From Chloroflexota bacterium (GTDB taxonomy: Bacteria; Chloroflexota; Limnocylindria; Limnocylindrales; CSP1-4): a stretch of 60,721 nt of DNA. Positions 40,486 through 43,080 of this stretch are shown piece by piece. Position numbers and translations under genes: made by a program. The stretch spans positions 1 to 60,721 of the forward strand of contig JANPDJ010000001.1 in the NCBI GenBank assembly GCA_031431395.1, given 5' to 3'. Within the stretch, counting starts at the first letter, position 1. Each line of letters begins with the position of its first letter. Below the pieces are notes generated by a model. That model was not told where the DNA came from. It worked only from the letters and a program-made list of their open reading frames with translations, and made no database searches.

Positions 40486-43080
40486 ATGACCGATCTCGCC
40501 ATCCGACCCAGAGCCACGCTCGATCCCCTCGCGCATGCCGAGACGCTGCTGGACACCCAGGCGCCGCAGCGGCCGACGGCCACGCCCCGGATCCGGATCG
40601 AGGTGGACGGGCGCGTCGTGGAAGGCCTGGAGGGCCAGACCATCCTCGAGGTCTGTCGCGACAACGGCATCGAGATCCCCACGCTCTGCTACGAGCCCAA
40701 GCTGCCGGGCTTCGGGGCATGCCGGATGTGCGTCGTCGAGGTGGAGGGCGAGGAGCATCCGCCCATCTCCTGCTCGCGCGCCTGCGAAGACGGCATGAAG
40801 GTCCAGACGCAGACGGAAGAGGTGCGGCGCCTCCGCCGGACCAACCTCGAGCTGATCTTCAGCGACCACAACGCGTACTGCCTGCCGCCGTGCCAGAACA
40901 AGTGCCCCAGCCACATCGACATCCCGGGCTTCCTGAAGCAGAACGCGGAGGCGAACTGGCGCGAGTCCGTGCGGATCTTCAAGCGGACCATCCCGTTCCC
41001 TTCGGTCCTGGGGCGGGTCTGTCCAGCCCCGTGCGAGGAGCACTGCCGTCGCGACGAGGTGGACGAGGCGATCGCGATCCGCGACTCGCACCGATATGCC
41101 GGCGACCAGGTGATCAGGGCGATGCTCAACGAGAACGTGGACCCGCCGGTCCCGTTCGAGGTCCAGCCCCGGAGCGGACGCCGGATCGCCGTGATCGGAT
41201 CCGGGCCGGCGGGCGCCACCGCTGCGTACTACCTCCTGATCGCCGGCCACGACGTGACCATCTTCGAACGGGACCCCATGCCGGGCGGGATGCTCCGCTA
41301 CGGCATCCCGCAGTACCGGCTTCCCAAGGTGGAGGTCCTCGAGGCGGAGTACGAGGGCATCGTGCGGCTCGGCGGCCGGTTCGTGACGAACCAGGGCCTC
41401 GGGCGCGATTTCACGCTGGACGACCTGCAGAACCAGGGGTTCGACGCGGTCTGCGTCGCCATCGGCTGCTACGACACGAACAAGCTGGGGATCCCCGGCG
41501 AAGACGGCACCGGCGTCATCGACGGCCTGGACTACCTGCGCACGGCCACCCTGGGCCTCGAATACCCGGGCCACGCCGGGAGCCGCGTCGTGGTCATCGG
41601 CGGCGGCTTCACCTCGATGGACTGCACCCGCACGTCCGTCCGGCTGGGCGCGGCGGAGGTCACGCTGGTCTACCGGCGCGACATGAAGGACATGCCCGCC
41701 TCCGACGAGGTGCACGAGGCCATCGAGGAAGGCGCCACGGCGATCTTCCAGGCGGGCCCGGTCCGGATCGTGACCGACGCCACCAACACGGTCACGGGCG
41801 TGGAGTTCATCCGGATGAAGCTTGGCGAGCCGGATGCGTCCGGTCGCCGCCGCCCGGAGCCTGCCCCCGGTACCGAGTTCACGATCCCGTGCGACCGCGT
41901 CCTCCTGGCCATCGGCCAGGGCCCGGACCTGACATGGATCGGCCCCGGCTCCGATGGACCGAAGGCCAGCAAGCAGCGCCGCCTCGTTGCCGACGCGGTC
42001 ACCTTCGAGACCGGACGGCCGGGTGTCTTCGGCACAGGTGACGTGCGCATCGGCGCGGCGACCGTCGTGCAGGCCATCGCGGAGGGCCGCCGGGCCGCCT
42101 ATGCCGTGGATGCGTACGTCAAGGGCCTGGACCTGGCCGCCATCCGGACCCGCCAGACGCTGGCCGAGCCCCAGCCCGAGTTCCTGTCCATCGTGCCGTT
42201 CACCAGCGAGATCAAGGAGCCCCGCATCCGCCTGAAGAAGATGGAGGCGGAGGCCAGGAATCGCAGTTACATCGAGTACGAGATCCCCTACACGCGGGCC
42301 GAGGCGGTCGCGGAGTCCACGCGCTGCCTCCAGTGCACCTGCGAGGCGATCGGCTTCTGCGACCTGCGGCGGCTGGGGATCGAGTACGGCACAACCCTTG
42401 CGACGCTCGAGCCGCACCACAACTCCGGTGCAGGCTACCGCTCCGTGACCGAGAACCGGTTCACCGGCTACAACCACGACTACATCCGCGATGACTCACA
42501 CGCGTTCATCCTGCGCGAGCCGTCCCGCTGCATCGACTGCGGCCGTTGCGCGCAGGTCTGCTCGGAAGTGGTGGGCGCGGCCTGCTACGACTTCATGCGG
42601 ATCGGCTTCGACACCCTGGTGACGACGCCGCTGGATATGAGCCTCAACGACACGCCGTGCGTCTCGTGCGGCCGCTGCGCCGAGACCTGCCCCACGGGCG
42701 CGCTCATGCCCAAACCGCGGGTGCTGCAGAAGTACGAGGTCGACGAAAGCCGCTGCATCCTGTGCGGCATCTGCGTGGACGCCTGCCCGTATGACGCGCT
42801 CCGCGACAGCACGGAATTCGAGCTGTCCCACGAGTCGCGGGCAGAACCCATGATCGACCTGCTGTCCTACTCCGCCGTCAACCAGGAGACGGAAGTCACG
42901 TACATCCGGCGCGAGCGCGACTGGGCGGAGCGCGCCATGGCGGACGGCCGGCTGCTGGACACCGGACGCCTGCTGCCGATGCTGCCGGCGTCCATCGCGA
43001 ACGGCAACGGGAATGGACATGGCAACGGCCACGCGCACGACCACGGAGGCGCGGGCGCCACCGCGGGGCGGCACAAGTAA
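40486..43080 (+). CDS. Chimeric Fe-S flavoprotein: NuoG-type 2Fe-2S N-terminus + GltD-like FAD/NAD(P)H domain + 2x[4Fe-4S] region + NuoI C-terminal half
   Basis: - 2Fe-2S: [21 protein letters not shown]...SC.
- GltD part: [89 protein letters not shown].
- 2x[4Fe-4S]: [12 protein letters not shown] and [16 protein letters not shown].
- NuoI-like end: [24 protein letters not shown]..FEL...DLL.
- No molybdopterin-like NuoG body. Confidence 0.85.
   Translation: [864 protein letters not shown]

Follow-up and report, generated by a model that had tools for sequence, protein, structure and literature searches.

The StnABC complex (Sporomusa-type Nfn, an Nfn-Bfu enzyme; PDB 8oh5) is a soluble tetramer whose genes encode, in this order, a NuoE-like, a NuoF-like and a NuoG+GltD subunit (PMC10482914, PMC7483475). 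Its large subunit StnC starts with a [2Fe-2S] region, followed by a GltD domain (amino acids 102-565), NuoG-type clusters and an FdhF-like (molybdopterin-like) domain (amino acids 683-1172) that is inactive and mediates tetramer formation; clusters C1 and C2 are described as a non-functional 'remnant' branch (PMC10482914). The 11-subunit 'ancestral' complex I (nuoABCDHIJKLMN) has NuoI in one piece and lacks a dehydrogenase module of its own (Moparthi and Hagerhall, 2011; PMC3144371). Enzymes named 'Nuo-Bfu', 'Nfn-Bfu' and 'Por-Bfu' have been predicted by Schut et al. (2022; PMC9304861). The first is described from Deferribacteres, Proteobacteria, Planctomycetes and Nitrospirae, as a 14-subunit (A-N) enzyme with the whole BfuB core but without a GltD domain. 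Here we describe a complex I operon on contig JANPDJ010000001.1, in a stretch of 60,721 nucleotides (the window; all coordinates are window positions), in which nuoI is found as two pieces, each fused to a subunit of an inserted Stn/Nfn-Bfu-like flavoprotein module. The best explanation, which we hold to be likely, is a split nuoI operon with such a module, in which the two halves would rebuild the ferredoxin domain of clusters N6a and N6b.

The locus resembles each of these systems in part. Once the insert is removed and the halves are rejoined, its gene order is exactly that of the 11-subunit operon (PMC3144371), and an NDUFAF7-type gene adjoins it, as reported for some 11-subunit operons. 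StnABC is the closest relative of the inserted module and has the same gene order, and the ligands of the StnC [2Fe-2S] cluster, GltD domain, CLxCxC..C motif and HydA-type dicluster are all conserved here. However, the FdhF-like domain is absent, with the NuoI C-half in its place, and the NuoI N-half is found on the counterpart of StnA. The counterpart of StnB is without two domains that bifurcation requires, an N-terminal [2Fe-2S] and a C-terminal 2x[4Fe-4S] domain. In addition, these genes lie inside a membrane complex I operon, while StnABC is soluble. The arrangement follows the same idea as Nuo-Bfu, in which HydABC/Bfu-type genes stand mid nuo operon in place of the canonical NuoEFG (PMC9304861), but differs from it in the split NuoI, the GltD domain and a trimmed F subunit without the full BfuB domain set. 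NuoI has 0 occurrences in the Nuo-Bfu paper (PMC9304861), and no description of a split NuoI was found in the literature on Stn, the Bfu family, complex I evolution and Limnocylindria, of which our coverage is incomplete.

The two NuoI pieces and their place in the operon

All genes of the operon lie on the forward strand, in the order nuoA-B-C-D-H, NuoI-N::NuoE-like, NuoF-like, StnC-like (NuoG N-terminal domains + GltD)::NuoI-C, nuoJ-K-L-M-N. Each of the ten membrane-arm and Q-module genes (nuoA-D, nuoH and nuoJ-N) is present and in order, and the two NuoI pieces occupy precisely the interval from nuoH to nuoJ. The window has no canonical nuoE, nuoG or nuoI, and tblastn of the window with E. 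coli NuoI, a segment of M. smegmatis NuoI and the joined halves returned the two pieces only. The position is thus right for nuoI, but the coding sequence is split by three cistrons' worth of other domains: the approximately 4.1 kb between the halves is made up of the remainder of the NuoE-like gene, then the NuoF-like gene and the StnC-like body. Since the three flavoprotein-module genes lie between the halves, the N-half and the C-half are attached to different subunits of the module. The central part of the operon is composed as follows, with the 275-amino-acid and 864-amino-acid open reading frames (ORFs) referred to as ORF275 and ORF864.

38313..38573, forward strand: NuoI N-half, amino acids 1-87 of the 275-amino-acid protein, with the NuoI-specific N-terminal segment and the first CxxCxxCxxxCP motif (C56/59/62/66)
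38574..38684, forward strand: conserved linker, amino acids 88-124, AAETYGERRDESALRRSGRPVPD, with many invariant columns in the family alignment and no family match
38685..39140, forward strand: NuoE/HydC/StnA-like thioredoxin-fold [2Fe-2S] domain (amino acids 125-251; PF01257, E=5.3e-19), tail and stop
39145..40476, forward strand: NuoF/StnB-like flavin mononucleotide (FMN) subunit, from Pfam and NCBIfam; best PDB match StnB 8oh5_B, residues 124-527
40486..42705, forward strand: StnC-like body of the 864-amino-acid protein, from Pfam, NF009454 (amino acids 36-695) and its PDB matches 9bov_A and 8oh5_C
42709..42885, forward strand: NuoI C-half, amino acids 742-800, with the second CxxCxxCxxxCP motif (C757/760/763/767) and NuoI-type flanks
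42886..43080, forward strand: C-terminal extension (amino acids 801-835, conserved), then a variable Gly/Asn/His-rich tail (amino acids 836-864) and stop

Each of the three central cistrons has its own GAGG ribosome-binding site 6-8 nucleotides 5' of its ATG. The NuoF-like ORF is listed from 39100, but its probable start is the ATG at 39145, which follows a GAGG ribosome-binding site. We also considered a read-through fusion of the NuoF-like subunit with ORF864, as the two share a frame, and rejected it because ORF864 starts at an ATG with a ribosome-binding site of its own and there is no sign of read-through. The window has a G+C content of about 70%, and the 40486-43080 ORF has a third-position G+C of 0.92, a coding signature like that of its neighbours.

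The C-half came to attention through an earlier note made from the sequence, which placed a NuoI C-half at the end of the 864-amino-acid protein, with NuoI-specific flanks around its motif, and a matching N-half at the start of the ORF at 38313. Searches of the window proteins against Pfam, NCBIfam and PDB chains (phmmer and profile) bear out both placements and the flanks. Positions 42718-42885 (+) encode amino acids 745-800 of the 40486-43080 ORF, with a single CxxCxxCxxxCP motif and NuoI-type flanks. In NCBIfam, this region matches the NuoI families TIGR01971 (E=4.9e-14; amino acids 745-788 on profile positions 71-114 of 121) and NF004537 (E=5.9e-12; amino acids 742-789 on positions 100-147 of 204). 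When the piece was searched in isolation, eight of the ten best families were NuoI or an NDH-1 homologue, at 44-45 bits, while the best family outside the complex I and membrane-bound hydrogenase group, an [FeFe] hydrogenase, reached 27.5 bits, i.e., about 17 bits less. Against the PDB, single-stretch matches fall on the second motif of TYKY/NuoI. A profile built from the C-piece family, distant members included, matched about 45 distinct NuoI/TYKY/NdhI chains, all at the second motif and its flanks, over 43-56 positions and at 50-65 bits. The FE..R..L..LL flank that follows the motif in NuoI is present at amino acids 768-790. Judged by these comparisons, the signal of the C-terminal motif is far above chance and specific to NuoI.

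The N-half gives a corresponding picture. Amino acids 9-84 of ORF275 match NuoI families (NF004536 positions 13-89 of 180; TIGR01971 positions 1-66 of 121), and amino acids 9-83 match NF004537 positions 23-99. The NuoI-specific N-terminal segment is included, with amino acids 9-55 on profile positions 13-60 and on the TYKY N-terminal region, and nearly all of the 38 PDB matches of the piece are chains of the NuoI/TYKY/NdhI family.

As the pieces occupy NF004537 positions 23-99 and 100-147, they abut with neither overlap nor gap. The halves were joined in silico (ORF275 amino acids 1-87 plus ORF864 amino acids 744-834; 178 amino acids), and the product aligns to M. smegmatis NuoI (8e9g_I) in one gap-free alignment (query 11-131 on chain 9-129) at 82 bits, close to the sum of the 44 and 43 bits of the separate halves. 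On TIGR01971, the joined halves score 100.4 bits against the curated cut-off of 113.05 bits. The earlier note had taken an (R/K)Y-x-(V/I) element repeated in both pieces as a sign that the cut was unclean. This is not supported, as actinobacterial NuoI has both RY elements in one chain (DERYSPGERYGRVYQINY in 8e9g_I); with the gap-free alignment of the joined halves, this places a clean cut within the loop that separates the two motifs. A duplicated RY-x-V strand at the cut was rejected on the same alignment. Relative to NuoI / Nqo9 / TYKY (NDUFS8), the pieces are collinear and have the same N-terminal segment, both motifs, the inter-motif loop, the FE..R..L..LL flank and the nuoH-nuoJ position; the difference is that they are on two polypeptides, each fused to an electron-input subunit and each scoring under the family cut-off.

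The inserted module and its cluster ligands

The 864-amino-acid protein consists of an Fer2_4 [2Fe-2S] domain (amino acids 35-110), a GltD-type region with Fer4_20 and pyridine-nucleotide-disulfide reductase domains (amino acids 132-546; flavin adenine dinucleotide (FAD)/NADPH and two [4Fe-4S]), a CLQCTC..C motif (amino acids 614-625) and a HydA/Nqo3-type dicluster (amino acids 675-740). Its best solved relatives are 9bov_A (541 bits), StnC (8oh5_C, 486 bits) and NfnA (9n5u_A). The StnC family aligns in a single stretch (amino acids 36-767 for 9bov_A and 35-768 for 8oh5_C) in which all ligand Cys and His are conserved, and the layout is that of StnC: an N-terminal [2Fe-2S], a GltD FAD/NADPH unit inserted at the His-cluster region, CLxCxC..C and the HydA-type dicluster. 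The score on NF009454 is 559 bits, below the cut-off of 916 bits. The FdhF/molybdopterin-like C-terminal domain is absent, as the protein ends at 864 amino acids and has no Pfam match to PF00384 or PF04879. Because StnC homology ends at about amino acid 745 and the NuoI C-half starts at 742-745, 21 residues past the last HydA-type Cys, the FdhF-like domain is precisely replaced by half of NuoI.

Another reading of this boundary is that the motif stems from the [4Fe-4S] domain (C1/N7 type) that opens the StnC/NuoG FdhF/molybdopterin-like domain, and was left behind in degenerate form when the latter was truncated. The phmmer alignment to 9bov_A does continue weakly to amino acid 767, with 'srcilcgicvdac' against TKTVCTFCGMGC at the start of the molybdopterin-type domain. 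However, the motif is of the ferredoxin CxxCxxCxxxCP type and not CxxCxxxC...C, the molybdopterin-domain families are missing from the protein, both flanks are NuoI-like and NuoI dominates the family ranking. We therefore regard a remnant as extremely improbable, and return to the split NuoI.

Both CxxCxxCxxxCP motifs of the N6a/N6b type are present as a pair with one motif per chain, C56/59/62/66-P67 in ORF275 and C757/760/763/767-P768 in ORF864. According to the cysteine inventory, C56/59/62/66 has no partner motif in its own chain. In ORF864, C682/685/688/692 and C725/728/731/735 align column for column with the HydA-type dicluster of the StnC-family structures 9bov_A and 8oh5_C, and the ligand motifs that StnC uses for its GltD-side clusters are matched by H128/C132/C136/C140, C179/183/187 and C614/617/619/625. 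Because the HydA-type motifs pair with each other and the 614-625 segment is a StnC-conserved cluster motif, C757/760/763/767 is left without a partner in the chain. This agrees with the earlier proposal that the two preceding motifs are a NuoG/HydA-type pair and that the third is unpaired. The outcome that was named as fatal to that proposal, generic Fer4 matches and pairing with the CLQC..C segment at 614-625, was not what we found, as that segment belongs to the StnC cluster set and the best matches of the third motif are to NuoI.

In 2x[4Fe-4S] ferredoxin folds, each cluster is held by three Cys of one motif and the fourth Cys of the other. NuoI is the complex I subunit that carries N6a and N6b, as one 2x[4Fe-4S] domain docked between NuoG and NuoB. 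The simplest reading of the ligand pattern is that the two chains complete each other's clusters, and we infer from the sequences that the NuoI halves assemble in trans.

Alternatively, the third motif might be an ordinary extra Fer4 of a polyferredoxin-like C-terminus which forms a dicluster in cis with its neighbour, its likeness to NuoI being generic. The Pfam dicluster models Fer4_7, Fer4_9 and Fer4_10 match amino acids 718-771, the top summed PDB scores go to polyferredoxins, and tblastn with whole NuoI places both of its motifs on 42658-42846. On the other hand, the motifs at 682-692 and 725-736 already make up a complete HydA-type pair, as in the StnC-family structures. In the PDB search with the C-piece profile, polyferredoxins outrank the NuoI chains only by summed matches to a bare motif of about 27 residues, while the NuoI matches take in both flanks and the NuoI families stand clear of unrelated ones. 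A cis dicluster also leaves the orphan NuoI N-half unexplained and an otherwise complete nuo operon without nuoI, and the two halves co-occur across divergent architectures. We consider this explanation quite improbable, and trans assembly of the split NuoI is preferred.

All three subunits of the module depart from the canonical N-module: there is no NuoG molybdopterin-like domain, no four-Cys N1a site in NuoE and no four-Cys N3 in NuoF. The F subunit matches StnB (8oh5_B, 359 bits) and HydB above true NuoF (292 bits), but aligns only to StnB 124-527 and HydB 187-575 and has only Complex1_51K, SLBB and NADH_4Fe-4S in Pfam. The extra BfuB clusters B2-B5 (N-terminal [2Fe-2S] and C-terminal 2x[4Fe-4S]) are absent. 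Its GRGGAGFP and GEET motifs are conserved, while the N3 motif reads C-x2-T-x2-C (ACGKTIPCRIG) and LCGLG has become LCDHE, changes kept in most of the 63 Limnocylindria sequences aligned. The altered N3 motif suggests a 3Cys+His or otherwise changed cluster. The NAD-binding loop NADEGDPGAFMDR is changed to NGY[GE]ADP, and this change is conserved in the lineage. In the NuoE-like domain, C193-x4-C198 is kept, H235 and A239 stand in place of the second Cys pair, and there is an extra invariant C195; C193, C195, C198 and H235 may form a Cys3His [2Fe-2S] site. The GltD domain keeps the VYRR signature, as in StnC. We take VYRR (YRR) in this domain to indicate NADPH specificity, by analogy with GltD and NfnB.

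Across the family there is hardly any variation in the linker WGAAETYGERRDESALRRSGRPVPD, which joins the NuoI N-half to the NuoE-like domain; this suggests that it makes a structural contact and is not a flexible tether. At the other end of the module, 42991-43077 encodes the Gly/Asn/His-rich low-complexity end of the 864-amino-acid protein. Such a tail is found in the homologues too, with varying length and sequence, and it may bind metal.

Conservation and distant relatives

Homologues of the two fusion proteins are numerous. ORF864 has at least 120 homologue clusters (81-91% identity, 855-929 amino acids), and most of the named ones are Chloroflexota or Candidatus Limnocylindrales. ORF275 has 2858 matches at E <= 1e-5; among the 120 listed, identity is 61-92% over near full length and the annotation is NuoE only. 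Of the 599 pattern matches in a collection of species-level genomes, at least 579 code for a relative of NuoI-N::NuoE, and the best 80 of those relatives all come from metagenome-assembled genomes (MAGs) labelled Chloroflexi or Limnocylindria, bar one probably mis-binned contig. The NuoI C-half is nearly invariant over the 120 homologue clusters, conservation within the ORF275 family is highest in the N-half, and all eight Cys and both Pro are invariant in the aligned homologues. We examined related loci of 20 kb each, of which 61 reach from nuoH to nuoJ and so show the gene order. The order nuoH, NuoI-N::E, F, G/GltD::NuoI-C, nuoJ was found in every one of these 61 Chloroflexota (Limnocylindria) loci.

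An exhaustive search of cluster representatives extended the family to full-length NuoI-N::NuoE fusions of 26-51% identity. Among the distant loci, L088 and L085 have the layout of the window, and L081 has nuoA-B-C-D-H, the fusion and a Bfu-type F subunit before the contig ends. In L082 (1321-6023), from an AT-richer lineage (49% G+C), the domains are reshuffled: nuoH is followed by NuoI-N::E, a 1048-amino-acid E'::F::GltD protein with GltD at the C-terminus of the Bfu-type F subunit, a 265-amino-acid HoxU-like G::NuoI-C protein and nuoJ-K-L-M-N. This small G::NuoI-C protein has two clusters only, its other matches being short NuoG with a molybdopterin-type start. L083 and L084 have no nuo genes, and instead encode a PorD-like protein, PorA, a half-ferredoxin::E fusion, a HydB-like protein and a StnC-like::NuoI-C-like::PorB fusion. 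In L083 (97-7726), a soluble version linked to pyruvate:ferredoxin oxidoreductase (PFOR), the StnC-like protein of 1060 amino acids is joined via the NuoI-C-like motif to the thiamine pyrophosphate (TPP) domain of PorB. Like Por-Bfu (PMC9304861), these loci encode POR subunits beside Bfu/Stn-like genes; unlike in the published account of Por-Bfu, L083 has the NuoI-C-like fusion to the TPP-binding PorB domain and a NuoI-N-like motif on the E subunit. The L083/L084 system may re-use the split adaptor in a pyruvate:NAD(P)+ oxidoreductase. The NuoE-like domains of L081, L082 and L083 keep the canonical four Cys.

NuoI is the best NCBIfam family for every N- and C-piece of the distant loci, and the joined halves of L082 score 111.7 bits on TIGR01971, just under its cut-off. 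In every locus in which a G gene is present, the NuoI N-half::E gene is accompanied by a G::C-half gene. The halves thus travel together despite domain reshuffling, and no other indirect evidence speaks as strongly for their working as a pair.

The same survey bears on a third alternative, in which the pieces are derived from NuoI but form no two-cluster domain, being vestigial or holding a single cluster with other ligands, and the proteins are mainly a soluble Stn-like transhydrogenase located in the nuo operon by chance. The split pair in the soluble PFOR-linked loci and the orphan second NuoI N-half::E copies away from nuo genes, e.g., in L043, speak for it. Yet the ligand Cys and Pro residues are invariant, the operon structure is kept in all loci that show it, and the NuoI-specific N-terminal segment, useless to a soluble ferredoxin, has been kept in the nuo-linked forms, with high conservation. 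The Q-module of the operon would also be without electron input if N6a/N6b were missing. This alternative we judge very unlikely; the two-chain N6a/N6b subunit is the reading followed below.

The orphan second copies of NuoI-N::NuoE (about 60% identical) are found at L043 10001-10867 and L049 5784-6581, with no nuo genes near. The MAGs with such a copy also have the full operon, and the copy in L043 adjoins a 2-oxoglutarate dehydrogenase E1/E2 fusion on the opposite strand. Among the loci L001-L080, identity of the F subunit to that of the window is bimodal (about 53-59% versus 61-71%), while the other subunits vary less; in the lower group, the distance between the end of F and the start of the G gene is about 300 nucleotides longer. 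The Limnocylindria operons may fall into two subtypes.

Proposed electron path and remaining genes of the operon

The comparisons above establish what the pieces are, that they complement each other, and the gene order with its conservation. In the mechanism we propose, an 11-subunit-type nuoABCDHIJKLMN operon would have had its nuoI interrupted, in the loop between the [4Fe-4S] motifs, by a three-gene Stn/Nfn-Bfu-like cassette. The N-half would have become the N-terminus of the 275-amino-acid NuoE-like subunit and the C-half the C-terminus of the 864-amino-acid NuoG/GltD subunit. The halves would reassemble in trans into a two-cluster ferredoxin fold with N6a and N6b, each cluster taking three Cys from one motif and, from the other motif, the Cys that precedes the Pro. 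The rebuilt NuoI would then serve both as an electron wire to N2 and quinone and as a tether of the flavoprotein module to the Q-module, and so take over the anchoring otherwise done by the large C-terminal domain of NuoG, of which this module has no counterpart.

We infer the electron path and the substrates from the domain content. Electrons would enter at the GltD FAD, the YRR signature pointing to NADPH, and a second entry is probably at the FMN of the NuoF-like subunit, from NADH. They would pass the StnC-type cluster chain to the HydA-type pair, the NuoI C-half/N-half clusters, N2 and quinone. The HydA-type dicluster branch, a dead end in StnC, would thus lead 21 residues downstream into the NuoI C-half. 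The enzyme is probably a proton-pumping, non-bifurcating NAD(P)H:quinone oxidoreductase. Simple NAD(P)H:quinone oxidoreduction is most likely because the bifurcation-specific domains are absent, while confurcation, transhydrogenation or reverse electron flow that makes NADPH is possible.

Several points weigh against this account. The single halves (52 and 49.9 bits) and the joined halves all score under the NuoI cut-off of TIGR01971, and the Pfam Fer4_7 dicluster model matches amino acids 725-771 of ORF864 (E=7.4e-12), a stretch that runs from the second HydA-type motif into the NuoI C-half and makes pairing in cis formally possible. AlphaFold modelling of the directly fused halves (178 amino acids, no alignment) gave a predicted local distance difference test (pLDDT) score of 34, too low for a usable model. 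ORF864, with a shallow alignment of 46 homologues, gave a mean pLDDT of 44.8, and residues 552-811 are all below 50, the undoubted HydA-type domain included, so this model is silent on cis versus trans pairing. NADH input is uncertain because the N3 ligand set is non-canonical and the NAD loop is changed. An intact nuoI is possible elsewhere in the genomes of the 20-kb loci.

NuoI (TYKY) is a core subunit of every complex I, and a two-chain version, if true, would be a striking case of modular evolution and a route by which an 11-subunit, ferredoxin-type enzyme gains a pyridine-nucleotide dehydrogenase. Judging by the GltD domain, a proton-pumping complex I would here respire NADPH directly; to our knowledge, this is not an established activity of canonical complex I. 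The 'dead-end' cluster branch of StnC would become a functional exit wire. The split-NuoI enzyme is widespread and unrecognised by current annotation. Pipelines label the proteins 'NuoE' and 'FAD-dependent oxidoreductase / formate dehydrogenase', and metabolic reconstructions of Limnocylindria would therefore score a complex I without nuoI and nuoG. A broader proposal, which we see as evenly poised between right and wrong, is that Limnocylindria (at least about 570 species-level genomes) and scattered other lineages respire with a complex I remade by a Stn/Nfn-type NADPH/NADH module inserted in nuoI. The two-chain N6a/N6b subunit would act as a covalent docking adaptor of an NADPH-oxidising, proton-pumping enzyme, and the adaptor would have been re-used on PFOR.

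The remaining genes of the operon and the gene that precedes it are as follows.

32638..33834, forward strand: NDUFAF7-type methyltransferase (complex I assembly factor family), Pfam PF02636 Methyltransf_28, E=6.8e-58; directly 5' of nuoA
33968..34324, forward strand: nuoA, from the translation; 68-90% identity and same place in the related loci shown; homologue in L081 is PF00507
34510..35091, forward strand: nuoB, start uncertain and maybe further 5'; N2 ligands CCAIEMM, GDC and GCPP; conserved in the loci
35098..35649, forward strand: nuoC, from the ORF list; conserved in related loci
35650..36882, forward strand: nuoD, with the quinone-site motifs HPSTHG and GYLHRG
36914..38254, forward strand: nuoH, 446 amino acids, unusually long
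43155..43691, forward strand: nuoJ, from the ORF list and related loci
43688..43999, forward strand: nuoK, from the ORF list and related loci
44015..45964, forward strand: nuoL, from the ORF list and related loci
45968..47506, forward strand: nuoM, from the ORF list and related loci
47515..48978, forward strand: nuoN, from the ORF list and related loci

The NuoB motifs CC..C..C and the NuoD motifs are legible in the translations. The protein encoded directly before nuoA (398 amino acids) belongs to the NDUFAF7 / Methyltransf_28 family, whose mitochondrial counterpart is a complex I assembly arginine methyltransferase. NuoH is about 100 amino acids above the usual length, apparently owing to a hydrophobic extension at the N-terminus and an insertion close to the C-terminus, and its homologue in L088 is long as well (463 amino acids).

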